DNA of 64,000 nt from Bacteroidia bacterium (GTDB lineage: Bacteria > Bacteroidota > Bacteroidia > NS11-12g > UBA9320). Each line of letters starts with the position of its first letter. Position 1 is the stretch's first letter. A model generated the notes under the pieces. It was not told the DNA's origin. It made no database searches and saw only the letters and a program-made list of their open reading frames with translations. Of the stretch, positions 3,569 to 46,985 are shown piece by piece. Position numbers and translations under genes: made by a program. The DNA lies in contig JADLGN010000009.1 of assembly GCA_020849295.1 (NCBI GenBank), positions 51,705 through 115,704 of the forward strand. Direction: 5' to 3'.

Positions 3569-6500
3569 ATGTTTCGAATATTTATTAAAAGACCGGTTTT
3601 GGCAATTTCACTTTCATTGGCAATTGTATTTTTAGGTATTCTCGCAATATCAACGCGACCTGTTTCACAGTTTCCTGAAATTGCCCCTCCACGTGTAAGT
3701 ATTTTTATTGAATTTCCAGGCTCTAATGCAGAAGTATTAGTAAAATCAACTCTTACTATACTAGAAAGAGAAATAAACGGTGTGCCAGGTATGCAATATA
3801 TGATGTCTGATGCTACAAGTGCCAGCGAAGCAACTATAGAAATTGTATTTGAACCCGGAATTGACCCTACTATTGCTGCTTCAAGAGTAAAAACCCGTGT
3901 TGACCAAGTATGGGCAAACTTGCCAGAATTAGTGCAAAAAGAAGGTGTAATTATTACTCCAATTCAACCAAGTATGTTAATGTATGTCAATTTTTTTAGT
4001 ACTAAGAAGGAATTTGACCAAAAATTTTTATTCAACTACGCTAATACATACATAGTCCCCGAACTGCAAAGAATTAGTGGCGTAGGGCGCTCAGAGTTAG
4101 TTGGAAGTCGTGCTTTTGCAATTAGAGTTTGGCTAAATCCTGACAGAATGAGGGCTTATAAAATCTCTTCTGATGAAGTACTTAAAGCTATAGATGAACA
4201 AAGTGTTTTAGGTCGTCCAGGAAGAGTTGGTCTTAGCTCAGGCAAAAAAGCTCAATCTCTTGAATATGTATTTAATTATAAAGGATGGTATAATACGCCC
4301 GATCAATATAAAGATATTATTATTAAAGCTAATACTGACGGCGAAATACTAAGGCTAAAAGATATAGCAAATGTAGAAGTAGGAAGTGAATTTGTAGATA
4401 TATATACAAATAAAGATGGACATGCTTCTGCATCGTTGGTTTTAAAGCAAAATCCAGGAAGTAATTCAAATAAAATTATTGATGAAGTAAAACTAAAACT
4501 TGAAGAAATGAAAAAGGACTTTCCCCCTGGTGTTGATTATGAAATTAACTATGATGTATCAAACTTTGTAAATGCATCTATCGACAAAGTTATACATACT
4601 TTAATTGAAGCATTTATACTTGTATCAATCGTTGTTTTTGTCTTTTTAGGAGACTGGCGATCAACTTTGATTCCAACCTTGGCTGTTCCTGTATCATTAA
4701 TTGGTGCTTTTGTATTTATGCAAATGTTTGGTATAAGTATTAATCTTATAACATTATTTGCATTGGTTTTGGCTATAGGTGTTGTAGTAGATGATGCTAT
4801 AGTAGTAGTTGAGGCAGTTCATGTTAAAATGCATGAAGAAAATTTATCGCCATTTCAGGCTGTAAAAAAGGTACTAGATGAAATAAGTGGAGCAGTAATA
4901 GCCATTACACTTATAATGACAGCAGTTTTTGTCCCTGTTTCCTTTATGACAGGTCCGGTTGGGGTATTGTATCGTCAGTTTGCAATAACTATGGCATCTT
5001 CAATTGTATTATCTGGAGTAGTGGCACTTACTCTTACTCCAGTGTTATGTGCTATGATTTTGAAAAATACACATGGACAGCCTAAACGCAAAACACCTAT
5101 TAGCATTTTTATTGATTGGTTTAATAACAAATTTGAAAATTTAACAATTATTTACACTAAATTTTTATCGCACATAGTTAATAGACGAGTAATTACATTT
5201 GGAGCATTAATCATTTTTTCAATTTGTATTATTGGTATAAACAAAATTTTGCCAATTGGATTTATTCCAAATGAAGACCAAGGACAAATTTATGCCATTA
5301 TTCAAACACCTCCAGGGACTACTCTTGAACGTACAAATGCAGTTTCTTTAGAACTACAAAAAATAGCAAAAGAAATAGATGCTGTAAAATCAGTAACTGC
5401 AATGGCAGGCTATGAAATTTTGACTGAAGGACGTGGCTCTAATGCCGGCACATGTTTAATTAATCTTAAAGATTGGTCAAAGCGTACAAAAACAATAAAT
5501 CAGGTAATAGAAGAATTAGAGGAAAAAACAAAAAACATAGGTGCGGTAATTGAATTTTTTGAACCTCCCGCTGTGCCTGGTTATGGTGCATCTTCAGGTT
5601 TTGCATTGAGATTGCTCGACAAACAAAGTGATGTAGATTATCAAAAATTTGACGAAATAAACAGCAAATTTGTAAAAGATCTAAAAAAAAGAAAGGAACT
5701 CAGCGGTATTTTTTCATTTTATTCTGCTAAATATCCTCAATACGAAATTTCAATTGATAATGAGTTGGCAATGCAAAAAGGAGTTTCAATTGGCAAAGCA
5801 ATGGAAAATTTGAATATTCTAATTGGAAGCACTTACGAGCAAGGATTTATTAGATTTAATAATTATTATAAAGTATATACGCAAGCCGATCCTGAATTTA
5901 GAAAAGACCCAACTGACATATTAAATTTTTTTGTAAAAAATGATAATGGCGACATGGTACCTTATTCTTCATTTATGACAATTAAAAAAACACAAGGTCC
6001 TAATGAAATTTCAAGATACAATCTTTATACATCTTCGTTAATTAATGGAATTCCATCAAAAGGGTACACTTCTGGCGATGCTATAAAAGCAATTAAAGAA
6101 GTAGCCAAAACAAGTTTACCGAAAGGTTATGGAATTGCTTGGGAAGGTTTATCTTATGATGAATCAAAAAGAGGAAATGAAGCAATTATAATTTTTATGA
6201 TAGTAGTATTTTTCGTTTATTTAGTTTTAGCAGCGCAATATGAAAGCTTCATATTACCTTTTGCTGTTATTCTTTCTTTACCACCAGGTATTTTCGGTTC
6301 TTTTTTATTACTCAAAACTATGGGACTTAGTAATGATGTTTTTGCACAAATTGGTTTGATTATGTTGGCAGGGTTATTGGGCAAAAATGCTGTACTTATT
6401 GTTGAATTTGCAGTACAGAAAAATAATGAAGGTTTATCAATTTTTAAGTCAGCATTAGAAGGTGCAAAAGAGCGTTTCAGACCTATTTTGATGACATCAT

Positions 6501-6796
6501 TTGCTTTTATTGCAGGTATGATACCACTTGTAAGAGCAACAGGTGCAGGCGCTATTGGAAATAAAACTATTGGAACTTCTGCTTTGGGAGGAATGTTGTT
6601 CGGTACTTTGTTTGGTGTTCTTATAGTGCCCGGCTTGTATTACATTTTTGGTAAATTATCGGAAGGTAAAAAACTAATAAAAGATGAAGCTGTAGCTCCT
6701 CTTAGCGAAGATTTTGCTGAAAGTCAGAGTGAGGCAAGTCAAGATAATAATTTTAAAAAACTAATTGCAAAATTTTTGAAACGAAATGAAAAATAA
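3569..6796 (+). CDS. RND multidrug efflux permease, HAE1 family (AcrB/AcrD/AcrF-like)
   Basis: 1075 aa with 12-TM RND topology and large periplasmic loops. Conserved TM4 segment (GVVVDDAIVVVEAV). Confidence 0.92.
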   Translation: MFRIFIKRPVLAISLSLAIVFLGILAISTRPVSQFPEIAPPRVSIFIEFPGSNAEVLVKSTLTILEREINGVPGMQYMMSDATSASEATIEIVFEPGIDPTIAASRVKTRVDQVWANLPELVQKEGVIITPIQPSMLMYVNFFSTKKEFDQKFLFNYANTYIVPELQRISGVGRSELVGSRAFAIRVWLNPDRMRAYKISSDEVLKAIDEQSVLGRPGRVGLSSGKKAQSLEYVFNYKGWYNTPDQYKDIIIKANTDGEILRLKDIANVEVGSEFVDIYTNKDGHASASLVLKQNPGSNSNKIIDEVKLKLEEMKKDFPPGVDYEINYDVSNFVNASIDKVIHTLIEAFILVSIVVFVFLGDWRSTLIPTLAVPVSLIGAFVFMQMFGISINLITLFALVLAIGVVVDDAIVVVEAVHVKMHEENLSPFQAVKKVLDEISGAVIAITLIMTAVFVPVSFMTGPVGVLYRQFAITMASSIVLSGVVALTLTPVLCAMILKNTHGQPKRKTPISIFIDWFNNKFENLTIIYTKFLSHIVNRRVITFGALIIFSICIIGINKILPIGFIPNEDQGQIYAIIQTPPGTTLERTNAVSLELQKIAKEIDAVKSVTAMAGYEILTEGRGSNAGTCLINLKDWSKRTKTINQVIEELEEKTKNIGAVIEFFEPPAVPGYGASSGFALRLLDKQSDVDYQKFDEINSKFVKDLKKRKELSGIFSFYSAKYPQYEISIDNELAMQKGVSIGKAMENLNILIGSTYEQGFIRFNNYYKVYTQADPEFRKDPTDILNFFVKNDNGDMVPYSSFMTIKKTQGPNEISRYNLYTSSLINGIPSKGYTSGDAIKAIKEVAKTSLPKGYGIAWEGLSYDESKRGNEAIIIFMIVVFFVYLVLAAQYESFILPFAVILSLPPGIFGSFLLLKTMGLSNDVFAQIGLIMLAGLLGKNAVLIVEFAVQKNNEGLSIFKSALEGAKERFRPILMTSFAFIAGMIPLVRATGAGAIGNKTIGTSALGGMLFGTLFGVLIVPGLYYIFGKLSEGKKLIKDEAVAPLSEDFAESQSEASQDNNFKKLIAKFLKRNEK

Positions 6797-33326: not shown

Positions 33327-36300
33327 ATGATTGAGCGTATTATTCGCTGGTCAACCCATAACAGATTTTTTGTTTGGGTAATAATTCTTGTATTAACTGC
33401 AGGTGGAATATGGTCTGTGTATAACACACCAATTGACGCAATACCTGATTTGTCAGAAAATCAAGTAATAGTTTATACAGAATGGATGGGGAGAAATCCT
33501 CAGATAATTGAAGACCAGATAACATATCCCCTTGTGTCAAGTCTGCAGGGCATACCAAAAGTAAAAGCTATACGAGCATCATCAATGTTTGGGATGAGTT
33601 TTGTTTTTGTAATTTTTGATGATAATGCAGAAATTTATTGGGCACGAACACGTGTACTCGAAAGATTGAATTTTGCACAAAATAATTTACCACAAGGCGT
33701 TGTACCTTCACTTGGACCCGACGGAACAGGTGTTGGACATGTATTTTGGTACACACTGCAAGGCAAAGGATATGACCTTGGTGAACTTAGGGCTATACAA
33801 GACTGGTATTTAAAATATGCTTTGCAAAATGTAGAAGGTGTTAGTGAAATTGCATCTTTTGGAGGATTTCAAAAAAATTATCAGATAAGTATTAATCCTG
33901 AAAAACTAATATATTTTGATGTGTCGGTAATGGAAATTTCTGAAGCGTTAAAAAACAATAACCGCGATGCCGGAGGAAGTATTGTTGACATAAATAGTGC
34001 AGGATATATGATAAAAGGTAATGGCTACATTAAAAGTGTTGAAGATATAGAAGATATTTCGATTAAATCAGAAAATACAATTCCTATAAAAATAAAAGAT
34101 GTAGCAGATGTACAAATTACAAGTACTCAAAGACTTGGTTTTACTGATGAGAATGGCGAAGGTGAAGTAACAGGAGGTGTTGTTGTAGCAAGATATGGTG
34201 AAAACCCCGGTGAAGTAATTAAGCGCATTAAATCAAAATTGAAAGATATAGAAAAAGGGCTACCACCAGGAGTAAAAATAAAAACAGCCTACGACCGTAC
34301 AGATTTGATTAATGCATCAATTGCTACATTAAAAGAAGCCTTGTGGAGCGAAATTCTTGTTGTTTCGTTGGTAGTACTTGTTTTCTTATTCCATTTACAA
34401 AGTGCTATAGTAGCTATAATTACTATCCCACTTTCTGTTTTAATTGGTTTTATAATGATTAAAACTTTTGGAATTACTTTAAATATAATGACTCTCGGCG
34501 GTATAGCACTTGCCATTGGCGACTTGATTGATGCCGGAATAGTAATGACAGAAAATGCTTATAAAAATCTTGTTAAGGAGGTGTTAAATGAAGGATAAAA
34601 AACAAAAAACCAGAATTGGCAATACAAATGAGCTAAGCGAAGAAAGACGAATTGAGATTATTGAAAAATCATCGCTTACAATTGGCAGAGCAGTATTTTA
34701 TTCAATTCTTGTAACATTGATTTCATTTGCTCCTATTCTATTTTTAGAAGGACAGGAAAAAAAGCTTTTCACACCTCTTGTACTCACCAAAACCTTTACA
34801 ATGATAGGCTCTGCACTAATTGCTTTATTTATTGTTCCAATGTTATTAAGAACAATGATGAAAGGTAAACTGATACCAGAAAGCCGAAATTGGGTTTCTA
34901 ACTTTTTTATTACAATATATAGCCCAATTCTTAGGTTTTGCCAAAATAATGTAAAATCAGTTTTAGTTGTTTCGTTGCTTATAGTTATATCAGGAATTCC
35001 GCTTGTAATAAAAACAGGTTCTGAATTTATGCCCGAATTAGATGAAGGCTCTTTACTTTTTATGCCTGTAACATTGCCCGATGTATCAAACAGTGAAGCA
35101 AAAAGAATTTTGCAGGTACAAGATAAAATTATAAGCAGTTTTCCTGAAGTAGAATATGTTTTGGGAAAAGCCGGAAGAGCAAATACAGCTACTGACAATG
35201 CTCCTGTGAGTATGATTGAAAGTATTATTATTCTAAAACCAAAATCAGAATGGAGAAAAGGAATGACTACCCAGAAACTCGTTTCAGAATTAAATTCAAA
35301 AGTGCAAATACCTGGTGTGTCAAACGGTTGGACTATGCCTATTATTAACCGAATAAATATGCTTTCAACCGGTATAAGAACTGACATTGGAGTAAAAGTA
35401 TTCGGACAAAATTCTGACACTATTTATTCTATCTCTAAAAAAATTGAAAAGTCTTTGAAAAATATTGAAGGACTTACTGATTTGTATGCCGAACAACTTA
35501 CCGGAGGAAAATATATAGAAATAACCCTTAAACGCGAACAAGCTGCAAGGTATAATCTAAATATTGAAGAAATAAATATGATTATTGAAATGGCTTTGGG
35601 AGGTATGTCTATCTCAAAAACTGTTGAAAAAAGACAAAGATTTGATATTTCATTGCGAATAGCTCAAGATTTCAGAAAGGATATTAGCGAAATAAAAAAT
35701 ATTCCGATAAAAACAAAAAACTACGGTGTAATTCCTCTTTCATCAGTTGCAAACATTGAATTTACAGAAGGGCAGCCAATGATTAACTCCGAAAATGCTA
35801 TGCTTAGAGGTACTGTACTTTTCAATGTAAGAGGCAAGGATATGGGAACTGTAGTAAAAGAAGCAAAGAATAAAATAGATAATGAATTTAAAAAATTACC
35901 TCCTGGATATTATATAGAATGGAGCGGGCAATACGAAAGTAAAATTAGAGCCGAAAACAGACTAAAAGTTATCATTCCTGTAACATTACTAATAATTGCC
36001 TTTGTACTTTTTATAACTTTCAATTCAGCAAAAAAAATGCTTATAGTACTTACAAGTATTCCGGTAGCACTAATTGGCGGAGTTTATTCAATGTACTTTT
36101 ATGACGTAAATTACTCAGTTGCGGTAGCAGTAGGATTTATAGCTTTGTTTGGAGTAGCAGTAGAAACCGGAGTTTTAATGATTGTTTATCTTGACGAAGC
36201 TTTTGAAAATATGAAAGCCGAAAATAGTGTTCATATTTACGAAAGTGAAATTAAGAAAGCTGTATTTGCAGGTGCTGTAATGCGTGTAAGACCAAAACTA

Positions 36301-36489
36301 ATGACTGTAATGGCAGATATGATTGGGCTTTTGCCAGTAATTGCAGCTACAGGTACAGGAAGCGACGTAATGAAACCTATTGCTATACCATTTGTTTTCG
36401 GGCTGATATCCTCTACCCTATTTGTTCTTATAGTACTACCATTAATATACCAAGTAATTAAAAAAAAGGAACTAAAAGTTGCAGCATGA
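33327..36489 (+). pseudogene. cusA: heavy-metal RND efflux permease CusA/CzcA (HME family), interrupted by a frameshift in an A-rich run near 34590
   Basis: ORFs 33327-34598 and 34588-36489 are collinear with the N- and C-terminal parts of CusA/CzcA. They overlap in gaaggataaaaaacaaaaaacc, and a +1 shift restores ...KEVLNEG-KKQKTRIGNTNEL... Confidence 0.8.
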
Positions 36490-37727
36490 AAAAAACAATA
36501 ATATTCATAATTATAATTTTTCCAGTAATTTTATTTGCACAACACAAACCAACTTCGCTAAATGAAATTATTGAAAAAGTAATTACTGATTTTCCATCAG
36601 TAATACAAAACAAATATACCATAGAAGCTATAAAAGCTAAAGCAGAAGGCGCTAAAACATGGATGAATCCAACTTTTAATGCTGGATTTACTCGTGTGCC
36701 TTATGATTTTTCTATACTGGCTAACAGAAAAAGTTCAATGAACCAAGCAGGTTTTACATTTAATGTGCAGCAAATGATTCCTAATTTTAAAAATCAAAAT
36801 GCTAATCAAAAATATATTCTTTCACTTGCAGATATTGAAAAATGTAACATCGAAAAACAAAAAAACGAGCTAAGACTTTCAGTAAAACAACTTTATTTTA
36901 ATCGTCTTATTGCAGAAAAAAAAATAATAGAAATTGAAAAATCAGAAGAAATTTTACATTTACTAATAGAAACAGAAACAGCAAAACTTGAGTATAACAA
37001 ATCTGATTTACTCAATATTTACAAAACAAAGGCAAAACTTGCCGAATACAAAAACATGAAACTAATGCTGCAAGGCATGATAAATGAAAGTAATGCCGGA
37101 CTAAACACTTTGCTGCAAAGAGATGTTAGTACAAAATTCAATATTGATACCACATTTGCCCTATTCAAATATGACATTGTTGCAAAAGTAGAAAATACCA
37201 CATCAAGAAGTGATATAGAGGCAATGGGCAGTATGATAAAATCAATGAAATTAGAGCAAAATGCAGTAAAGCTAAAATTACGCCCCGAATTTGGTATAAT
37301 GGCAGAACACATGCAAATGCTTGCCATGCCGAGCCAGTGGGCTATTATGGGTATGATGACCTTGCCTATAAAATCATTTAGCGACAAAATGGTAAAATCT
37401 GAAATTAAAGCCATGGATTACAAAATAAAATCAATGGAAGAAGAAAAAAATGCAATGAAAATAATGATTGACAAAATGACTAATGAAAAATTAGAAATTC
37501 TTAAAAGTCGTTATCTGATGTACAAAAATTTTACTGATGAAATTATCCCTCAATATATAAAAAATTATGAAGTAAGTTTATATTATTACAGACAAAATTC
37601 AACTGATTTTGCCAAAGTAACTGATGCAATTGAGATGCTGTATATGAAAAAAACTGAAATGTTGGATTTGCTAAATGAAATATTAAACACAGAAGCTGAA
37701 TACGAATATGAAAAAGAAATCAAATAG
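36486..37727 (+). CDS. outer membrane efflux protein (TolC/CusC/CzcC family)
   Basis: Signal peptide, a 413-aa two-repeat coiled-coil-rich pattern, and an ATGA overlap with the cusA stop. Confidence 0.7.
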   Translation: MKKTIIFIIIIFPVILFAQHKPTSLNEIIEKVITDFPSVIQNKYTIEAIKAKAEGAKTWMNPTFNAGFTRVPYDFSILANRKSSMNQAGFTFNVQQMIPNFKNQNANQKYILSLADIEKCNIEKQKNELRLSVKQLYFNRLIAEKKIIEIEKSEEILHLLIETETAKLEYNKSDLLNIYKTKAKLAEYKNMKLMLQGMINESNAGLNTLLQRDVSTKFNIDTTFALFKYDIVAKVENTTSRSDIEAMGSMIKSMKLEQNAVKLKLRPEFGIMAEHMQMLAMPSQWAIMGMMTLPIKSFSDKMVKSEIKAMDYKIKSMEEEKNAMKIMIDKMTNEKLEILKSRYLMYKNFTDEIIPQYIKNYEVSLYYYRQNSTDFAKVTDAIEMLYMKKTEMLDLLNEILNTEAEYEYEKEIK

Positions 37728-38961
37728 TTTGAAAATATTAGTTTTAATTAATGTTCTGTTGGCTTTTACTTACTGTAAAAAAACTTACAATTCGTCAAAT
37801 ATAAAAAAAGAAATACTGTATCAATGTCCAATGGATACACAGATAATAAGCAAAGTGCAAGGCAAATGTCCAATCTGTAAAATGAAGCTCGAGTTTAAAG
37901 CTGATGATGCAGTTTTGCAAAGCATATCTCCATCTAAACTTGTATTTTCATCACAAAAAACAATAAAAATTACTGATAAAAATATTTCATCCAATATTAT
38001 TCTTTCAGGAATTACAGCACTTGCAGAAAATCTCAACAAAAATGTATCAGCCAAATTTGGCGGAAGAATAGAAAAACTATATGTAAAATACAATTACAAG
38101 TACGTAAACGAAGGAGATAAAATTATGGAAATTTTTAATCCCGAATTACTTGCTATGCAAGAAGAATACTTGTTTTTGCTTAAAACAAAAAATGAAAAGA
38201 TTTTTATTGAAAAATCAAGAAAAAAATTATTGCTTAGCAATATTTCTGAAAGCCAAATTGTAGAAATTGAAAAGACTCATAAAGTAAAAAGAACAATAAC
38301 TATTTACAGCCCATACAGTGGCTTTGTATTTTTTAATGATATAAATAAAGCCACAGCAGATAATGAAACTGCACAAAGTGACGGAATGAATATGAGTAAA
38401 ACAATTGTGGAAGAACCCACTTACAATTATTCTAAAATATACGAAGGTAGCTATGTAAACAATCGCTCTACACTTTTTCAAGTAAATGACATGAGCAAAA
38501 TATGGGCTTGGATATCTGTGCCTGCAATGTTTATAGAGAAAATAATACCTGGCACTCCTGTAGATTTAGCTTTGGAAAACAATTCACTTATAAAAACTAA
38601 AATTGATTTGATTGACAGAAATAATGAGAATGGTCAAAGCAAATTTGCAAAGTTTAAAATTACTTTAGACAACTTTGATAACAAAATTCTCATAAACGCA
38701 ATTGTTAAAGCAACTGTAAAATCGAGTATTAACAATAAAATATATATACCTCAACAGTCAATTTATTTTACTGGGAAAAACTCAATAGTATGGCTTAAAA
38801 CAGCAAACGCTAAAAACGGAAACGTTATTTTTGAAATTAAAAAAATTATAACCGGCGAAAAAATAGATGGAAATGTAGAAGTAATTAGCGGACTTAATGT
38901 AAATGATGAAATAGCTGCTAATGCAGGAATGATGACAGACAGTGAAACTATTTTAGAATAA
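37708..38961 (+). CDS. CusB-like RND adaptor (MFP) with N-terminal heavy-metal-binding domain, paralogue 1
   Basis: Lipobox (FTYC), HMBD motif YQCPMDTQ...GKCPICKMKL, then a membrane-fusion beta-barrel. Confidence 0.8.
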   Translation: MKKKSNSLKILVLINVLLAFTYCKKTYNSSNIKKEILYQCPMDTQIISKVQGKCPICKMKLEFKADDAVLQSISPSKLVFSSQKTIKITDKNISSNIILSGITALAENLNKNVSAKFGGRIEKLYVKYNYKYVNEGDKIMEIFNPELLAMQEEYLFLLKTKNEKIFIEKSRKKLLLSNISESQIVEIEKTHKVKRTITIYSPYSGFVFFNDINKATADNETAQSDGMNMSKTIVEEPTYNYSKIYEGSYVNNRSTLFQVNDMSKIWAWISVPAMFIEKIIPGTPVDLALENNSLIKTKIDLIDRNNENGQSKFAKFKITLDNFDNKILINAIVKATVKSSINNKIYIPQQSIYFTGKNSIVWLKTANAKNGNVIFEIKKIITGEKIDGNVEVISGLNVNDEIAANAGMMTDSETILE

Positions 38962-38966
38962 AGGAT

Positions 38967-40148
38967 ATGAAAAAAATTATTTATTTAATTTTTGTTTTTT
39001 TAACTACCATTTATGCTTGTAATGATAAAAGTTCTGAAAACAAATCAAAATCTGACTCTTATTACACATGCCCTATGCATCCATCTGTAGAAAGTAATAA
39101 TCCAGGCTCGTGCCCTGTATGTAATATGTCTTTAATAAAGGTAAACAGAAAAGATATTGACGGAAAATTACCAAAAGGAAATTTTATTACTCTTGACAGT
39201 AGAAGTCTTAAATTGGCAGGAGTAAAACTTGATACTATTAAATTTTCAAACATTTCAAACTCTGAGTTTATTACAGGAATTACAGTACAAGACCCAGAAA
39301 AGACATATAGTGTAAATGCCCGAATTAGTGGTAGAATTGAAAATTTGTATGCAAATTTCAAAGGTTTTTATATTGAAAAAGGAAAATTGATATATAGCTT
39401 ATTCAGCGAAAAACTGATAGGACAGCAAAAAGAACTTATAGAATTATTGAAATATAAAGAAAAAGAAAGAAAAAACGACAAACTAACATTGGATATGATA
39501 GAATCTGCCAAAAACAGATTACTTACAAGCGGAATGTCAAACTCTCAAATTGATGAAATAATTATTAGAACAAAAATTATTAAATATATTAATTTTTATG
39601 CTGCCGAAAGCGGATATATAAGTAAATTGAATGTAAAGGAAAATATGTATGTGGAAGAAGGACAAGAAATATTTACTTACAACTCTCAAAATACCCTTTG
39701 GGTAGAAGCAAAATTGTTTGACGATAAAAACTTTTCTACCGAGCAAAACAAAATATATAGCATTTTGCCCATTAGCAATCCTAATAAAAAATACAATGGA
39801 GTGCTAATAATTGCCGAACCACAAGTTGCTGATGGCAAAAGGTATTCATTACTTAAAATTAAAATTGACAATACTGATAAAAAACTTGTAGAAGGAATGC
39901 AAGTAAAAGTTTTTGTAAGTAAAAATGAAAATAACTCAAAAATTGTAATATCAAAATCTGCAATTATTAATGGAAAAGTAAAATATATTTGGAAACTTGC
40001 TCACGACAATACTTTTGAGCAAGTAGAAATAATTACCGGCAAAGAAAATGAAAAAAATATTGAAATTTTGAAAGGAATAACTCATGGTGATATTATAATT
40101 ACAAATGGAGCATATCTTGTTAATAGTGAATTTTTATTGAAAAAATAA
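38967..40148 (+). CDS. CusB-like RND adaptor (MFP) with N-terminal heavy-metal-binding domain, paralogue 2
   Basis: Lipobox (IYAC), HMBD motif YYTCPMHPSVESNNPGSCPVCNMSL, then the MFP core. Confidence 0.8.
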   Translation: MKKIIYLIFVFLTTIYACNDKSSENKSKSDSYYTCPMHPSVESNNPGSCPVCNMSLIKVNRKDIDGKLPKGNFITLDSRSLKLAGVKLDTIKFSNISNSEFITGITVQDPEKTYSVNARISGRIENLYANFKGFYIEKGKLIYSLFSEKLIGQQKELIELLKYKEKERKNDKLTLDMIESAKNRLLTSGMSNSQIDEIIIRTKIIKYINFYAAESGYISKLNVKENMYVEEGQEIFTYNSQNTLWVEAKLFDDKNFSTEQNKIYSILPISNPNKKYNGVLIIAEPQVADGKRYSLLKIKIDNTDKKLVEGMQVKVFVSKNENNSKIVISKSAIINGKVKYIWKLAHDNTFEQVEIITGKENEKNIEILKGITHGDIIITNGAYLVNSEFLLKK

Positions 40149-40282
40149 TATTAATTGTAAAACATGAATTATCTTGTAAGCTTTAAAAATAAAATTATTT
40201 TGATGGTTAATTTAAGCACTTTTATAATATGTAAAACACATCAGAACAATTTTTTTATTCTCAATATAAGATAATTATAAAA

Positions 40283-40310
40283 TATTTTTATATTTTTATA
40301 TTTTTATATT
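40283..40310. repeat. (TATTTTTA)x3 tandem repeat in the promoter region of the secreted-protein operon
   Basis: Direct reading, about 20 nt upstream of the ATG at 40332, inside a near-pure A/T stretch. Confidence 0.75.
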
Positions 40311-40331
40311 TGCATTTTAATATTTATAATT

Positions 40332-40754
40332 ATGAAAACTATTCTTTATTTATTATTATTTTTTTATTCTAGTTTTGTTTCCTCTAAATCAAACACAATT
40401 AATCAGCAAAGACCAGTAACAGTTACAATTGAAGTAAAAGGAGGATTTATTAGGACTGATAGATGGGAAGACCCGTCAACTTGTCGTACATTTGATAGAA
40501 TAATTTGCGACCCAACCTATGCTAACTCCATTTGCTATACAATAACTTACACTTATGATGATGGTACAATAGCTACCAATGGATTAGGGCTTGATGAGGG
40601 TCAACATCAATATCCAATTTATGTTAAATTAATTAAAAATGATGGACAGGTAATAAACGAAGGACTTGTATCTTTTTATGATTATACTTCAACTTTTGAA
40701 AATAATCATATTAACTCATTATACCAATTCACTTTTGAAAACTGTGGTAATTAA
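40332..40754 (+). CDS. hypothetical small secreted protein A (6 Cys in the mature part)
   Basis: Signal peptide MKTILYLLLFFYSSFVSS; mature part about 120 aa with paired Cys (STCRTFDRIICD, NSICYT, FENCGN). No recognisable domain. Confidence 0.5.
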   Translation: MKTILYLLLFFYSSFVSSKSNTINQQRPVTVTIEVKGGFIRTDRWEDPSTCRTFDRIICDPTYANSICYTITYTYDDGTIATNGLGLDEGQHQYPIYVKLIKNDGQVINEGLVSFYDYTSTFENNHINSLYQFTFENCGN

Positions 40755-40764
40755 TTATAAGTTT

Positions 40765-41178
40765 ATGAAAAATATTTTAACAATATTATTAATAGGATTT
40801 TTTTTTAATTGTTTTGCACAAAGCCCTGAGCAAAACACCGATGACACAAAGACTTATATAGAAAAGGGAGATTTTTTAGGAATTTATACCTCCCAATTAT
40901 CAAATGGTCAAACAGAGACAATTATTGCATGTCATTGTTCAGAAAATACTTGTTATACAGATACAACAAATCAAACATCTAATATTTCAAACATTAGTAA
41001 TATATTAACAGATGACTGTGTTGGCACATTAATTAAAACAATACAACCAGAAACTTTTATTCAAATAAGATTAGAAAATGGTACATTAATTTGTGAAGGA
41101 AAATTAATTAATTTTTCAAACAATCCTAATTCTACAAATTTGTTATATAGAAGTAGTAGTTTTATAATTGGTAATTAA
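40765..41178 (+). CDS. hypothetical small secreted protein B (6 Cys in the mature part)
   Basis: Signal peptide MKNILTILLIGFFFNCFAQ; Cys pattern IIACHCSENTCYTD...DDCVGT...LICEG. The ORF-track extension to 40666 overlaps gene A and is rejected. The stop overlaps the next start (TAATG). Confidence 0.5.
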   Translation: MKNILTILLIGFFFNCFAQSPEQNTDDTKTYIEKGDFLGIYTSQLSNGQTETIIACHCSENTCYTDTTNQTSNISNISNILTDDCVGTLIKTIQPETFIQIRLENGTLICEGKLINFSNNPNSTNLLYRSSSFIIGN

Positions 41179-42677
41179 TGAAATTTTTTATATTAAATAT
41201 ATTTGTTTTTTATATATTAAGTACAGCATTTTGTCAATCAACAATTCTCAATCCTAATGAAATTGATTTGATAAAAAGTATAACAAAAAACAATCAAAGC
41301 AAAATTAACTATTTTGTATTTATAGATAAGAATGATTGTTTTAATTGTACAATTGCTTCATCGTTATTAAAACAAGAATTAGACAGTTCAAGGGTTTATA
41401 TTTTATCAAACCAAATAGAAAAAAATGAATTAGATGACTATATTAACTTTTATCAATTAAGTAATTCTTTTAATTATGTATTTAGAGAAGAAATATTTAA
41501 AATATTTATCAAAAAAGCTGAACAACTATTTAAAGATAAATCTTTTATAGCCGAGGTTAATTCTTCGATTGTAACAATTATACCACTAAAAAAATTTAAT
41601 AGCCAAATGTCATTTGGAGATAAAATAGACATATCAAAAGAAAAAGTAGTTTTTAACAAAGGGCACTTTATAACCGCTATTACAAAATTTGCTTCATATG
41701 AAAAAGATTTCATAGCTTTTTCAAGTCCAAAAAGTTTGTTACATTATTTTTCATCTGATAGTATTCGCTCAAATATTTATCTTGATAGTAACATTTTAAA
41801 ACTAGCCTATAATTACATTATCATGCAGCAGCATGATTCAATAAAATTAAAGAATTCATTTACAAAAAGTATAGAAGTTTATAACAAGCAACTTTTAAAA
41901 TATGGATTTACATTATTTTCGGCTCAAAATTTTACAATATCAGATAATAAGTGTATTGCACTTTTACAAGTTTCAATGCCAATAAGTACATCATCAACAA
42001 ATATTGTTTTAGAAAAAGAATTATTTCTTGCAATAATAAATCTTAATAAATCAAATTACTGGAATATAAGTAAATTTACGCCTATTGATAATTCAAATTT
42101 ACCAAAAGGCAAAGTAATTTTTGCTTACAATTTCTTTTCATATAACCCAATTGATGAAACTTTTGAAGTCGGCTTTTATCAAGATTCAAATTTAATTAAA
42201 AATATAAATTACAATCAAATGCATTGTACATACAAAATTTTAAATGGTGTATATAGTAGTACAACAAAATGTATGAAAAGTTATCCTTCAGATGTTATTA
42301 CAAATTATACAACTTTACAAAACATTGCATTAATACACTATAGTGCTGAAAATAACAAAGTTAAATTTACTTACTTGCCAATAATAGTAAATAGCGATAC
42401 AAACATAATCTTGCCATTAAACCTTACAAAGGATGACTTATATCATAGTTTTGCTTCAGTTTCTATCGAAAATAAATTTTTAGATTTTTGTTCAATAAAT
42501 GGAGTTTATTATTTTATAATATATAAAGTAGCAAACAACAAGTACATAATTGAATCAATTAATAAAAAAGAAATAAAGGGGACTATACAATCAGTAGAAA
42601 AAGTTAATGATAGCTTTAACTACATAAGGTATGAAAATGGGTATTTTTATAAAAACAATATAAGTAATAAATTTTAA
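41178..42677 (+). CDS. hypothetical secreted protein C (499 aa) with an N-proximal CxxC (CFNC) motif
   Basis: Signal peptide MKFFILNIFVFYILSTAFCQ, with FVFIDKNDCFNCTIA resembling a thioredoxin-like CxxC. The rest has no recognisable domain. Translationally coupled to gene B. Confidence 0.5.
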   Translation: MKFFILNIFVFYILSTAFCQSTILNPNEIDLIKSITKNNQSKINYFVFIDKNDCFNCTIASSLLKQELDSSRVYILSNQIEKNELDDYINFYQLSNSFNYVFREEIFKIFIKKAEQLFKDKSFIAEVNSSIVTIIPLKKFNSQMSFGDKIDISKEKVVFNKGHFITAITKFASYEKDFIAFSSPKSLLHYFSSDSIRSNIYLDSNILKLAYNYIIMQQHDSIKLKNSFTKSIEVYNKQLLKYGFTLFSAQNFTISDNKCIALLQVSMPISTSSTNIVLEKELFLAIINLNKSNYWNISKFTPIDNSNLPKGKVIFAYNFFSYNPIDETFEVGFYQDSNLIKNINYNQMHCTYKILNGVYSSTTKCMKSYPSDVITNYTTLQNIALIHYSAENNKVKFTYLPIIVNSDTNIILPLNLTKDDLYHSFASVSIENKFLDFCSINGVYYFIIYKVANNKYIIESINKKEIKGTIQSVEKVNDSFNYIRYENGYFYKNNISNKF

Positions 42678-43011
42678 ATCGAAAGCAGCTTTGACTCCTC
42701 TTTAATAAACTGTGCTACTTTGTTTTCAAAATCATTAAATAACTTTATAGTATTTTTACCAGCATTGGTTATTACCGCACCACCTCCGCTTTTTCCTCCA
42801 AGTTTTTTTTCAACCAGTGGTATCTTTGCTCTATCATTCATTTCTTCTACCATTTGCCAAGCTTGGCGATACGACATTTTCATTGATTTTGCGGCATTTG
42901 AAATAGACCCTAACTCATCAATTTTCTGAAGCAATTCTACTCTACCTTTGCCTAAAAGTTTTTCATCACCCGAAAAAAACCAAATTCTAAAACTAACCGA
43001 TAATTTTTTAT
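42674..43011 (-). CDS. ModE-N-like winged-helix DNA-binding protein (molybdate-regulator N-terminal domain only)
   Basis: LLGKGRVELLQKIDELGSISNAAKSMKMSYRQAWQMVEEMN...GGKSGGGAVIT matches the ModE N-terminal wHTH signature. No TOBE domains. A TTG start at 43011 is proposed because the longer ORF has an implausible N-terminus. Confidence 0.6.
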
Positions 43012-43115
43012 TATTTGACAATGCTAAATTAATTAATAAGTTTAATAATTTGCAATTTATTCTATTTATACGCAAATTGAATAAAAAAAATAATATTTTT
43101 ACTTCATAATTTATA

Positions 43116-44084
43116 ATGAATTCTTTTTGGAAAAAAATCATAATCAATACTGTTCTTAAAAACAATAATTCTCCCAAAAAATATTATTCAAAATTTGCTT
43201 TAGCTAAAGCCCACAGAATATTATTAATTACAATAAATAGACATATTAAAGATGTTTTCCTTATATTAATCGGAGTTTTTTCAGCTTCTTTTGGTTTTAA
43301 GGGATTTCTTTTGACAAATAAATTTATTGATGGTGGTGCCACTGGCATTTCGTTACTTATTTCGGCATTATCAGATATACCGCTTTATATTTTAATAATA
43401 TTTGTAAATATTCCATTTATTTTACTAGCTATAAATGTAATGGGAAAACAGTTTGCAATAAAAACTTCATTATCAATTACTGCACTTGCTATAGTATTGG
43501 CTACTTTTAATTTTCCAAATGTTACAAACGACAATTTATTAGTTGCTGTATTTGGCGGTTTTTTTCTTGGTGCCGGTATTGGATTTGCCATTAGAGGAGG
43601 AGCCGTAATAGACGGGACAGAAGTACTTGCAATTTATTTAAGTCGAAAATTTGGAGTAACAATTGGCGATATTATCATAATAATTAATATCTTTATTTTT
43701 TCTGCAGCTGCATATTTTTTAGGTATCGAAAAGGCTTTGTACTCTATGATTACATATTTGGCAGCATCAAAAACTTTAGATTTTATTGTAGAAGGAATTG
43801 AAGAATATATTGGTGTTACAATTGTATCTGCACATTGCGATGAATTAAGAGTAATGATTACTAATAAACTTGGCAGGGGAATTACTGTTTACAACGGGAA
43901 AAGAGGATATGGCAAAAGAGGCGAGTCTTCTGATGTTGATATAATTTATACAGTAATAACAAGACTTGAACTTAATAAACTAAATACCGAAATTGAAAAG
44001 ATAGACCCTGTGGCTTTTGTAGTAATGAATAGCGTAAAAGACATTAAAGGTGGTATGATAAAAAAGCGACCACTTAGTAAATAA
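43116..44084 (+). CDS. YitT-family membrane protein with C-terminal DUF2179 domain
   Basis: Four or five TM helices (GGATGISLLI...) and a C-terminal soluble domain (...GRGITVYNGKRGYGK...DPVAFVV) typical of YitT/DUF2179. Confidence 0.7.
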   Translation: MNSFWKKIIINTVLKNNNSPKKYYSKFALAKAHRILLITINRHIKDVFLILIGVFSASFGFKGFLLTNKFIDGGATGISLLISALSDIPLYILIIFVNIPFILLAINVMGKQFAIKTSLSITALAIVLATFNFPNVTNDNLLVAVFGGFFLGAGIGFAIRGGAVIDGTEVLAIYLSRKFGVTIGDIIIIINIFIFSAAAYFLGIEKALYSMITYLAASKTLDFIVEGIEEYIGVTIVSAHCDELRVMITNKLGRGITVYNGKRGYGKRGESSDVDIIYTVITRLELNKLNTEIEKIDPVAFVVMNSVKDIKGGMIKKRPLSK

Positions 44085-44168: not shown

Positions 44169-46985
44169 GTGTCAGCTCAAGAAAAATTCATAAAAATAAA
44201 AGGTGCAAAACTTCATAATTTAAAAAATATAGATGTAAATATTCCCCGAAATAAACTTGTTGTGGTTACTGGAGTTTCAGGTTCAGGAAAATCTACACTT
44301 GTATTTGATACACTTTTTGCCGAAGGACAAAGGCGATATGTAGAAAGTTTATCATCTTATGCCCGACAATTTCTTGGAAAACTTGAAAAACCCGAAGTAG
44401 ATAGTATAAGCGGACTTTCTCCTTCAATAGCAATAGAACAAAAAGTAAATACACGAAACCCAAGAAGCACAGTAGCAACAAGTACCGAAATTTATGAATA
44501 CCTAAAATTACTTTTTGCCCGTGCAGGACATACTTTTAGTCCTGTTAGCAACAAAGAAGTGAAATGTTTCGAAATTAAAGATGTTGTTAATTTTATAAAT
44601 TCTTTAGATGAAGAAAGTCAAATTTTAATTACTGTAAAGCTATCTGCATCTAAAGATTTGATAAGTAAAATAAGGACTTTAATGCAAAATGGGTTTACAA
44701 GAATTATGATAGACAATAGTCTTGTAAAAATTGAGGATGTATTAAAATCACCTAATGATTTTAAATTAAAAAATGTTTATCTGATTATTGATCGTCTTAT
44801 AATAGACAAAAATGAAACAATGGCTGATTCACGTATTGCCGACTCAGTAGAAACAGCTTTTTACGAAGGTCATGGTGAAATTGAAATAATTGTAAAACAC
44901 AATGATGTTCAACAAAAACATAACTTTTCAAATCGTTTTGAATTAGATGGAATTAAATTTGAAAAGCCCAGTGTAAATCTTCTTAGTTTTAATAATCCTT
45001 ATGGAGCATGTAAACGCTGCGAAGGTTTTGGTAATATAATAGGAATTGATGAAGATTTAGTAATTACAGACAAAAATTTATCATTTTACGAAGGTGCAGT
45101 TGTTCCATGGAGAAGTGAAGGAATGACCGAGTGGAAAAACAATTTTATAAAAAAATCAATAAATTATGATTTCCCAGTTCACAGGGCATACAATCAACTT
45201 ACAGAAAGAGAAAAACAACTATTGTGGAATGGTAATAATGAAATTGAAGGAATTTACAATTTCTTTAAATACATTGAAGAACAATCGTACAAAATTCAAT
45301 ACCGTGTAATGCTAAGCAAATACCGTGGTAAAACAGTATGTCCTGATTGCCGTGGTGTAAGGCTTCGCAAAGATGCTTCATACATAAAACTTGTAAATAA
45401 AAACAATATAAATCTCGATTTCATATTTAGTGGTAAATATGCATCAATAAATGATATTTTACTAATGCCGGTAGAAACAGCTTTTAATTATTTTGACAAA
45501 ATAAAACTGAATGACCATGATGAAAAAATTGCAAACAGACTGCTTTTGGAAATTAAAAACAGATTAAAATACTTACTTGATGTTGGGCTTGGATACCTTT
45601 CACTTAATAGATTAAGCAACAGTTTGAGCGGTGGAGAATCGCAAAGAATAAATCTTGCCACATCGCTTGGCAGCAGCCTTGTTGGCAGCACATATATTCT
45701 TGATGAACCAAGTATAGGGTTGCATCCGCGTGACACTGAAAAACTCATTCAAGTTTTACATAATCTTAAAAAATTAGGCAATTCAGTTATTATTGTAGAG
45801 CACGATGAAGAAATAATGAACTCATCAGATCATATAATTGATATAGGACCACGAGCAGGAACCCTTGGCGGAAAGGTTGTATTTGAAGGCCATTTTAATG
45901 AAATTTTCAAAAGTGATAGCTTAACAGGCAAATATCTTTCTGGTAAAATGAAAATTGAAACACCACTAAAAAGAAGAAGTTGGAGTAATTTTATAAAACT
46001 TGAAAAATGCAGTTTGAATAACTTGAAAAATATTGATGTTGTTTTTCCATTGAATATTATTACATGTGTAACCGGAGTAAGCGGAAGCGGAAAAACATCT
46101 TTAGTGAAAGGAATATTTTATCCGGCAATACAAAAGGCATCAGGAAATTTTACTAATCTTAAAACAGGCAAATTTGAAAATATTTCGGGTGATTTTAAAT
46201 CTATTAAATCAGTAGAATTAATAGACCAAAATCCAATAGGAAAATCAACAAGAAGCAATCCTGTAACATATATTAAGGCTTGGGATAGTATTCGCGATTT
46301 GTATTCAGAACAAGCATTAGCAAAAAGAAATGGCTTTAAGCCACAGCATTTTTCATTTAATGTTGACGGTGGGCGATGTGAGCAATGTAAGGGCGAAGGG
46401 GAAGAAACCATTGAAATGCAATTTATGGCTGATTTGCATATAACATGCGAGTCATGCAAGGGCCAAAAGTTTAAAAATGAAGTTTTAGAAATAACTTATA
46501 AAGGTAAAAATATTTACGAGATTTTATGCCTGACAATAGATGAAGCAATTGATTTTTTTGCCGACAAAGCAAATATTTCATTAAAACTAAAACCTTTGCA
46601 GGAAGTAGGACTTGGATATGTAAAACTTGGTCAAAGCAGTGCATCTCTTAGTGGCGGCGAAGCTCAAAGGGTAAAACTTGCATCTTTTCTTTCTGCAGGC
46701 AAAAACACTGAGCATGTAATGTTTATTTTTGATGAACCTACAACAGGACTTCATTTTAATGATATCGAAAAGTTATTAAAGTCTTTTAATTCATTAATTG
46801 CAAACGGACATACTGTAATAATAATTGAGCATAATATTGAAGTAATAAAATGTGCAGACTGGATAATAGATATAGGACCCGATGGTGGCGAAAACGGTGG
46901 AAATATAATATTTGAAGGGACCCCCGAATTATTAATAAAAACGAAAAACAGCCATACTGCAAAATTTCTAAAATCTAAACTTTAG
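44169..46985 (+). CDS. uvrA: excinuclease ABC subunit UvrA
   Basis: Two ABC ATPase modules (Walker [10 protein letters not shown] twice), zinc-finger CxxC clusters, 938 aa, GTG start. Confidence 0.95.

Follow-up and report, generated by a model that had tools for sequence, protein, structure and literature searches.

What do three adjoining genes encode when each product begins with an export signal, none has a recognised domain, and the largest carries a lone Cys-x-x-Cys motif? The question is raised by genes A, B and C of a 64,000-nucleotide (nt) stretch of a Bacteroidia bacterium genome (GenBank assembly GCA_020849295.1, contig JADLGN010000009.1, positions 51,705 to 115,704), referred to here as the window. 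An earlier reading of the sequence (the original prediction) had described three co-oriented open reading frames (ORFs), a TAATG junction in which the B stop and the C start share one base, and a CFNC motif in C, and all of these are present (Table 1). The trio is a rare module that is conserved as a unit in a few Bacteroidota. The reading that we favour, tentatively and at somewhat less than even chances, is a self-contained periplasmic thiol-disulfide module resembling a split version of the proteins NHLRC2 and SOQ1.

Genomic contexts were retrieved for 11 independent lineages (loci are cited by L numbers). Genes for an A-like protein, a B-like protein and C follow each other in that order in nine of them (the window with L003; L004, L013 and L015; L006; L007 and L008; L009 and L010; L017; L018; L019 and L020; and L022). 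The remaining two have a fused A-B gene followed by C (L016) and B with C on a truncated contig (L021). The stop codon of B overlaps the start codon of C, as TAATG or ATGA, in at least seven lineages (the window, L004, L006, L007, L009, L016 and L018). In every lineage inspected the module consists of A, B and C alone and is single-copy, chromosomal and set amid housekeeping genes. Its neighbours differ by lineage and include Cus efflux genes, mfd, carotenoid genes, ppk2/rnpA, purE, mscS/ftsZ, osmC/pirin, an lptD-like gene and purK/purE. The original prediction had proposed a functional unit without a recognisable family, in which two small cysteine-pair proteins belong with a large one, and this is borne out by the presence of the trio in 10 of the 11 independent contexts and by the lack of a characterised homologue. 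Homology of the proteins to a characterised family and failure of the trio to recur as a unit were both looked for, and neither was found.

Relatives of the three proteins are few. A word-indexed search of 5.8 billion proteins returned seven relatives of C, six of A and one of B. The C profile was also run as an exhaustive hidden Markov model (HMM) search against 1.84 billion cluster representatives and yielded only 31 proteins at E ≤ 1e-3, nearly all of about 500 amino acids (aa), and a scan of 185,579 species genomes identified two carriers, both metagenome-assembled genomes (MAGs) of Bacteroidota. The family was placed in Bacteroidota because several contigs contain genes with tails of the type IX secretion system (T9SS) and because of the names of three annotated MAGs. 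There was no significant match for A, B or C in Pfam, NCBIfam, PADLOC or PHROG; in Pfam and NCBIfam, C had none at E ≤ 1 and ten superfamily members had none at E ≤ 0.1. Sequence-profile searches of the PDB with the full C superfamily, its N-terminal domain and the A+B family also gave no significant match. By these profile searches, A, B and C are three orphan protein families without Pfam or NCBIfam coverage. Matches to GldH_lipo, a phage tail-tube family and pyruvate kinase were below threshold, did not recur across members and were rejected.

Proteins A and B are related to each other. Comparison of their family alignments using hhalign (probability 93.9%, E 1.6e-7) identifies them as paralogs. 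A has four cysteines (51, 59, 68 and 138), and B has six (16, in the leader, and 56, 58, 63, 85 and 110); the earlier count of about six in each was thus too high for A and included a signal-peptide residue in B. C51, C59 and C68 are invariant in a nine-member alignment of the A family, which keeps the motif RTDRWEDPSTCRTFDRIxC, and C56, C58, C63 and C85 are invariant in the B family. The motif in A itself extends to RTDRWEDPSTCRTFDRIxC...CYTxTYTYDDG, and that in B is ETIIAC.CSEN.CYT. In a joint alignment of 20–21 A and B sequences, only two cysteine columns are invariant. The feature shared by both families is a C-x6-8-C[YF] pair with strand-like flanks (…I-I-x-C … C-Y-T-I-T…), and the A and B proteins of the most distant pair, from L022, retain just these two cysteines apiece. 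The two genes are fused in L016 (4273-5001) into a single 242-aa ORF in which B has no signal peptide, a classic indicator that A and B act together. Protein A is predicted to be β-rich, at low confidence only, and the A+B family has no relative in Pfam or in the PDB, the sequence-profile search included. A and B do both end in ...GN, as the original prediction had pointed out, but this ending is not kept in the homologues and, judged from the alignments, is coincidental.

Two further observations concern the small proteins. A possible small subunit bearing a tryptophan tryptophylquinone (TTQ) or cysteine tryptophylquinone (CTQ) type of cofactor was considered and rejected: A has a single conserved Trp, which B and distant A proteins lack, and no radical S-adenosylmethionine or maturation genes are present. 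In L019 (2177-2733), and also in L020, the called B-like gene covers only 112 aa, and 218 nt separate it from C. The C-terminus of B that the call lacks (…YTNQHTPPDILIREHTFILSH) is readable in this gap, with a hairpin after it, which suggests a frameshift or a sequencing error.

Protein C has seven cysteines, those of CFNC included. In its AlphaFold2 model, an alternating α/β N-terminal domain (residues ~20-140) precedes a six-bladed β-propeller (~156-499). When 30 members of the superfamily, with identities as low as 15%, were aligned, only three positions proved invariant (C54, C57 and N226) and six near-invariant (D53, S122, P184, G243, P268 and P401). The CxxC cysteines are therefore two of only three fixed residues, which upholds the earlier view of this motif as the hallmark of the large protein. 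The two residues between them vary freely (FN, IN, GY, NS, SN, NR and HR), so that the motif is D-C-[FY]-N-C in the close clade and D-C-x-x-C across the superfamily, with D-C-I-N-C in six distant members. The model has a strand at residues 44-48, CFNC at 54-57 and a helix at 54-67, which places the CxxC at a strand-to-helix junction. The topology of this domain is compatible with a thioredoxin fold (βαβαββα core). Its weak Pfam matches are to Thioredoxin_2 (2 of 25 members, best E-value 0.048), Thioredoxin_16 and Glutaredoxin, and the best PDB matches of its profile are two thioredoxin-fold disulfide oxidoreductases. These matches are non-significant (E 0.24 and 0.56) and align CxxC on CxxC, including that of the Pyrococcus protein disulfide oxidoreductase. 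A thioredoxin-like N-terminal domain is plausible on this evidence. Foldseek comparison of C with the PDB and a viral library retrieved generic propellers only, with low template-modelling scores.

All three proteins have N-termini of the signal-peptide type, as had been predicted, with one or two K/R residues, a hydrophobic core (mean Kyte-Doolittle value over 10 residues ≥ 2.2) and small amino acids in positions -3/-1 around residue 18-20, and every homologue shows the same features. The leaders span ~18 residues in A, ~18-19 in B (ending ...CFA|Q) and ~19 in C, and the cleavage candidates are of the AxA| or xxA|Q types. The L016 fusion lacks the B leader exactly up to the predicted mature N-terminus, and the precise loss of that stretch argues for a cleaved signal peptide. 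A lipobox ([LVI][ASTVI][GAS]C) is absent from the signal-peptide ends of A, B and C; the leader of A has no cysteine, and those in B and C are preceded by N, F, I or V and are missing in several homologues. A T9SS C-terminal domain is likewise missing from all three. Given these absences and a Gram-negative Bacteroidota cell, the periplasm is the default location, and A, B and C are most likely Sec-exported and periplasmic. The description of the proteins as secreted is thus better worded as Sec-exported. A side observation comes from the distant lineage L021 (2100-3380): the gene that follows C encodes a protein of 426 aa whose C-terminal T9SS sorting domain is clear (E 2.9e-10), the only case of a secreted protein co-oriented with and adjoining the module.

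In the thiol-disulfide reading, C would be a thioredoxin-like α/β domain with a D-C-x-x-C motif, fused to a six-bladed propeller that serves as a protein-docking platform. A and B (~115-120 aa each) would act as a pair, probably a heterodimer, and each would present its invariant cysteine pair as a disulfide-closed β-hairpin. The propeller would bind A and B, the CxxC would exchange disulfides (electrons) with their cysteine pairs, and the overlapping stop and start codons would keep the partner proteins co-produced. We infer such contact and redox exchange because all three proteins carry export signals, the CxxC of C lies beside a propeller, A and B share a cysteine pair, and the genes are fused or coupled. 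Two versions of this mechanism can be drawn, and the data do not distinguish between them. C might form or isomerise the disulfides of A and B, which would then be dedicated clients, or A and B might be small redox-relay or carrier domains, comparable to the nDsbD-like domain of SOQ1 and NHLRC2, encoded as separate genes.

Several results weigh against redox chemistry and are shared in part by another account, in which A, B and C form a periplasmic or outer-membrane-associated complex (for ligand binding or envelope maintenance, for example) and all conserved cysteines, the CxxC included, are structural disulfides that form in the oxidising periplasm. An invariant cysteine pair can be purely structural, and the propeller is a generic fold for protein or ligand binding. 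No Pfam thioredoxin model matched C above threshold, and hhalign of its N-terminal domain against E. coli TrxA was not significant (2.5% probability). The N-domain alignment has no conserved cis-Pro; a near-invariant Ser122 stands before the corresponding strand instead. The predicted local distance difference test (pLDDT) score of the C model falls below 50 exactly at residues 55-57, and the model of A is unusable (pLDDT 42), which makes the fold of A and B and the hairpin disulfide guesses. The module contains no redox partner gene for an electron donor or acceptor (DsbD/CcdA or DsbB/VKOR). In L011, C is intact and the A-B gene has been swapped for three unrelated genes directly upstream, so either C does not strictly need A and B or the L011 module is decaying. 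The thioredoxin-like domain of NHLRC2 lacks classical oxidoreductase activity, and NHLRC2 was inactive in an insulin reduction assay (PMC6107167). A purely structural complex is nevertheless unlikely in our judgement. The CxxC lies at a strand-to-helix junction and is invariant down to 15% identity around variable middle residues, which is the pattern of a reactive dithiol, and the cysteines of the equivalent SOQ1 motif, CCINC, are essential for SOQ1 function (PMC6107167; bioRxiv 10.1101/2021.03.16.435614). If the cysteines were merely structural, the finding would be a rare conserved hypothetical operon.

The composition and evolution of the trio were compared with those of its surroundings. 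B (GC 0.246) and C (0.225) have the two lowest GC contents among 44 ORFs in the window (mean 0.302, sd 0.024), and A (0.293) is ordinary, so the reported A/T-richness of the region applies to B and C and not to A. The ratios of nonsynonymous to synonymous substitution (dN/dS) between the window and L003 are 0.72 for A and 0.49 for B, both from small substitution counts, and 0.33 for C; for five neighbouring efflux genes they are 0.07-0.28. The trio proteins therefore evolve faster than their efflux neighbours. Loci L016 and L011 have different cassettes directly upstream of C and share 91-93% nucleotide identity on both sides of them: the cassette is the A-B fusion in L016 (4252-4999), and genes of 275, 281 and 176 aa in L011 (5683-7999). 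One breakpoint falls ~20 nt ahead of the first cassette gene and the other at the start codon of C. The 275-aa product of the first L011 cassette gene has a weak T9SS sorting domain. The 176-aa product has a CKPC motif and was taken for thioredoxin-like on visual inspection; it has neither a Pfam match nor profile similarity and was not used as evidence.

A 53-bp direct repeat (87-89% identical) brackets the cassette and C in both L016 (3987-4039 and 6496-6548) and L011 (5417-5469 and 9496-9548). Within it is a small hairpin (ATATGAC-GGAT-GTCATAT), and the repeat could have arisen by duplication of a terminator or could be a scar of recombination that marks the module as a mobile unit. In L004, the region immediately 5' of the trio (4846-6590) holds a gene for a phage-type integrase, 1 kb away, together with a T9SS-tail fragment of 55 aa and an orphan gene of 191 aa, which hints that the trio in this lineage is part of a genomic island or adjoins one. 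Around the trio in the window, candidate flanking direct repeats and insertion scars were chance-level A/T-rich matches only and were discarded. An accessory envelope module fits the elevated dN/dS, the low GC of B and C, the location that varies by lineage, the L004 integrase, and the L016/L011 swap with its repeats. The original suggestion of an accessory insertion is consistent with the GC outliers and with a different neighbourhood in every lineage.

These properties also bear on the suggestion that the trio encodes a secreted effector or resembles a bacteriocin module, with A and B as disulfide-stabilised toxins, C as the protein that matures them and phase variation through the promoter repeat. 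Small cysteine-containing exported proteins beside a CxxC protein, the lowest GC values in the window, variable contexts with a cassette replaced between L011 and L016, and dN/dS values above those of the flanking genes would all suit such a system. No T9SS C-terminal domain, dedicated exporter or ABC domain, processing peptidase, immunity gene, or PADLOC or PHROG match was found for the trio. The long motifs of A are nearly identical across lineages in which C is only 37-45% identical, unlike those of arms-race toxins, and the genes are single-copy and chromosomal amid housekeeping genes. We regard this account as highly improbable, and the behaviour of the upstream repeat does not help it.

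That repeat is as the original prediction placed it, about 20 nt from the first ATG. The intergenic region between the last Cus gene and A (183 nt, 13% GC) holds 3.8 copies of ATATTTTT, which end 21 nt before the ATG and form the top-scoring Tandem Repeats Finder (TRF) array of the window. A perfect periodic run of 30 nt was reached in 0 of 200 Markov simulations, including a model trained on the intergenic region itself, and the array is therefore a real tandem duplication. Its copy number was compared across three assemblies (the window, L001 and L003) and is 3.8 in all of them, whereas other intergenic bases differ; the genes of L003 differ from those of the window by a synonymous divergence (dS) of 0.05-0.18. 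The repeat was not found upstream of the trio in any other lineage inspected. An invariant copy number and absence elsewhere speak against phase variation, and we treat the array as one component of an A/T-rich promoter specific to this lineage.

The 3' end of the array forms TATATTTG, an exact match to TAnnTTTG, which is the -7 promoter consensus of Bacteroidetes as described for Bacteroides promoters. It stands 20 nt before the ATG of A, where 160 nt of upstream sequence contain no other TAnnTTTG, and is kept in L003; the consensus occurs about 0.9 times per kb in the window. TATATTTG is thus a plausible candidate for the operon promoter. Rfam searches for riboswitches or leader RNAs 5' of the trio gave no match, either in the window or at eight loci, and the DNA upstream of it shows no conservation between lineages. 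In two distant clades, a divergent XRE-family helix-turn-helix (HTH) gene (HTH_3/HTH_19) adjoins A on its upstream side (L019 1184-1594, L020 4452-4862 and L022 2210-2575) and is a candidate dedicated regulator of the trio in those clades. The window has no such gene; its regulator closest to the trio is the convergent HTH_1 gene.

Table 1. Features of the trio locus in the window
Feature	Position	Strand	Description
Tandem repeat ATATTTTT x3.8	40282-40311	.	TRF score 60, 100% matches, 8-nt unit
TATATTTG, putative -7 promoter element	40305-40312	+	Exact TAnnTTTG match formed by the 3' end of the repeat
Gene A	40332-40754	+	ORF, 140 aa; small protein, predicted exported
Cys pair C59...C68 of A, C-x8-C-Y	40506-40535	+	Invariant in the A+B alignment
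Gene B	40765-41178	+	ORF, 137 aa, ATG start; paralog of A, predicted exported
Cys pair C56...C63 of B, C-x6-C-Y	40930-40953	+	Columns homologous to C59/C68 of A
Gene C	41178-42677	+	ORF, 499 aa, predicted exported; start overlaps B stop
CFNC (C54-x-x-C57) of C, after near-invariant D53	41337-41348	+	Residues 54-57; hallmark D-C-x-x-C motif

The flanks of the trio agree with the earlier description of a metal-efflux island on one side and a ModE-like regulator on the other. Upstream are a split resistance-nodulation-division (RND) pump, an outer-membrane efflux protein (OEP) gene and two CusB-like genes with heavy-metal-binding domains (HMBD); downstream are a convergent HTH_1 (ModE-N-like) gene, YitT and UvrA. 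This arrangement raises the possibility that the trio is a metal-handling accessory of the neighbouring Cus-type efflux system, with D-C-x-x-C binding Cu(I)/Ag(I) or another thiophilic metal and with A and B as periplasmic carriers. Cysteine pairs with an adjacent Asp can coordinate soft metals, and in the window and L003 the trio is directly downstream of, and co-oriented with, the pump, OEP and adaptor genes. Adjacency to Cus genes is limited to that one lineage of 11, so the metal-efflux link stands as a local arrangement and not as a general property of the module. The 183-nt gap with its own promoter-like element separates the trio from the last Cus gene, and A and B have no conserved Met- or His-rich motifs, which are typical of periplasmic Cu(I) proteins. 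We therefore consider a metal-handling role decidedly improbable.

The flanking genes have features of their own. The CusA-like RND pump (Pfam ACR_tran; window 33327-36489) is split between two ORFs (423 and 633 aa) with an 11-nt overlap, which span profile positions 2-415 and 417-1020. The same split occurs in the relative L003 (151-1422 and 1412-3313) and is thus not a one-sample assembly error; either a stably divided gene or a conserved frameshift may account for it. The two tandem CusB-like membrane-fusion genes (window 37708-40148) each have an N-terminal HMBD, and a duplicated adaptor is an uncommon arrangement for a Cus-type operon. The 3' end of the ModE-N-like HTH_1 ORF (window 42674-43177, minus strand) overlaps the C stop codon by 4 nt. 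With the TTG start as called, the ORF also shares 62 nt with the beginning of the YitT gene (43116), and its true start is therefore probably further downstream. The HTH_1 match is confined to residues 80-140.

Genes related to photo- or oxidative stress were seen near the trio in several lineages. Carotenoid genes (crtI, crtB and lycopene cyclase) are close to it in two distant lineages (L006 5567-8845 and the P0030 lineage), and L006 also has a gene for a Dps-type ferritin. In the window, uvrA (44169-46985) is two genes downstream, past HTH_1 and YitT. The mfd gene lies immediately 3' of the trio in L004 (9361-12669), and lipocalin, osmC, pirin and flavin mononucleotide (FMN) reductase genes surround it in L017 (1003-7228). 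This pattern is a post hoc observation. The carotenoid, uvrA and mfd genes and the osmC, pirin, FMN reductase and lipocalin neighbours hint that the trio could be an operon-encoded bacterial counterpart of the plant SOQ1 photoprotection switch, in which a periplasmic thioredoxin-like/propeller protein would set the redox state of two small β-proteins under (photo-)oxidative stress. We hold this more specific proposal to be improbable. If it were true, A and B would be the first genetically linked clients, in a tractable system, for the enigmatic thioredoxin-propeller proteins, to which SOQ1 and the FINCA disease protein NHLRC2 belong.

The broader thiol-disulfide reading, if true, would add a compact and previously unannotated envelope thiol-disulfide system to Bacteroidota, in which the periplasmic disulfide machinery is poorly understood. 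Human NHLRC2 and plant SOQ1, for which no direct substrates are known, are of medical and agricultural relevance, and their logic would be easy to study experimentally in a bacterial analogue whose candidate partners are evident. The hallmark motifs of A, B and C could also become family models.

How far the trio resembles described systems can be judged protein by protein. SOQ1 and NHLRC2 have a thioredoxin-like domain, whose CCINC motif is located at the domain interface, a six-bladed NHL propeller and a small β-domain of the nDsbD-like type. The cysteine pair of this β-domain has been proposed to exchange disulfides with the thioredoxin-like motif; the SOQ1 pathway controls a small cysteine-containing lumenal lipocalin (PMC6107167; bioRxiv 10.1101/2021.03.16.435614). 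C differs from these proteins in that the first cysteine of their CC(I/V)NC motif, which in them lies in a TlpA/DipZ-like thioredoxin domain, is replaced by Asp. It has no match to Thioredoxin_8 or AhpC-TSA. In the model C ends at the last propeller blade, without a C-terminal nDsbD-like β-domain, and the candidate equivalents of that domain are the separate proteins A and B. C is not a member of the NHLRC2/SOQ1 family because sequence-level tests for that family fail, and the likeness is an analogy of design, not of membership.

The propeller of C resembles DUF4221 and the six-bladed propellers of Bacteroides (PDB 3s9j, BVU_1028; 4raa, BF0058) in structure only, at 8% identity. Those proteins (354-362 aa) are judged by their length to be without the ~140-residue N-terminal CxxC domain of C. 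No HMM of DUF4221 or a 6-bladed-propeller family in Pfam or NCBIfam matched C, and literature searches on DUF4221, NVEALA and BVU_1028 found no papers. The logic is shared with thioredoxin-fold oxidoreductases of the periplasm that serve dedicated clients (TlpA with ScoI/CoxB, the nDsbD-cDsbD relay of DsbD, and ResA/CcmG), in which an exported CxxC protein trades electrons with a specific small β-sandwich partner bearing a cysteine pair. Proteins of this type have W-C-x-x-C, a cis-Pro, Pfam thioredoxin or redoxin matches, no propeller and a membrane electron transporter; the W-C-x-x-C, cis-Pro, Pfam match and transporter were not found for C or its module. In the thiol-disulfide reading, the trio would thus represent a known design, a thioredoxin-like domain with a propeller and a small cysteine-pair β-partner, built here from three protein families that the family databases do not cover.

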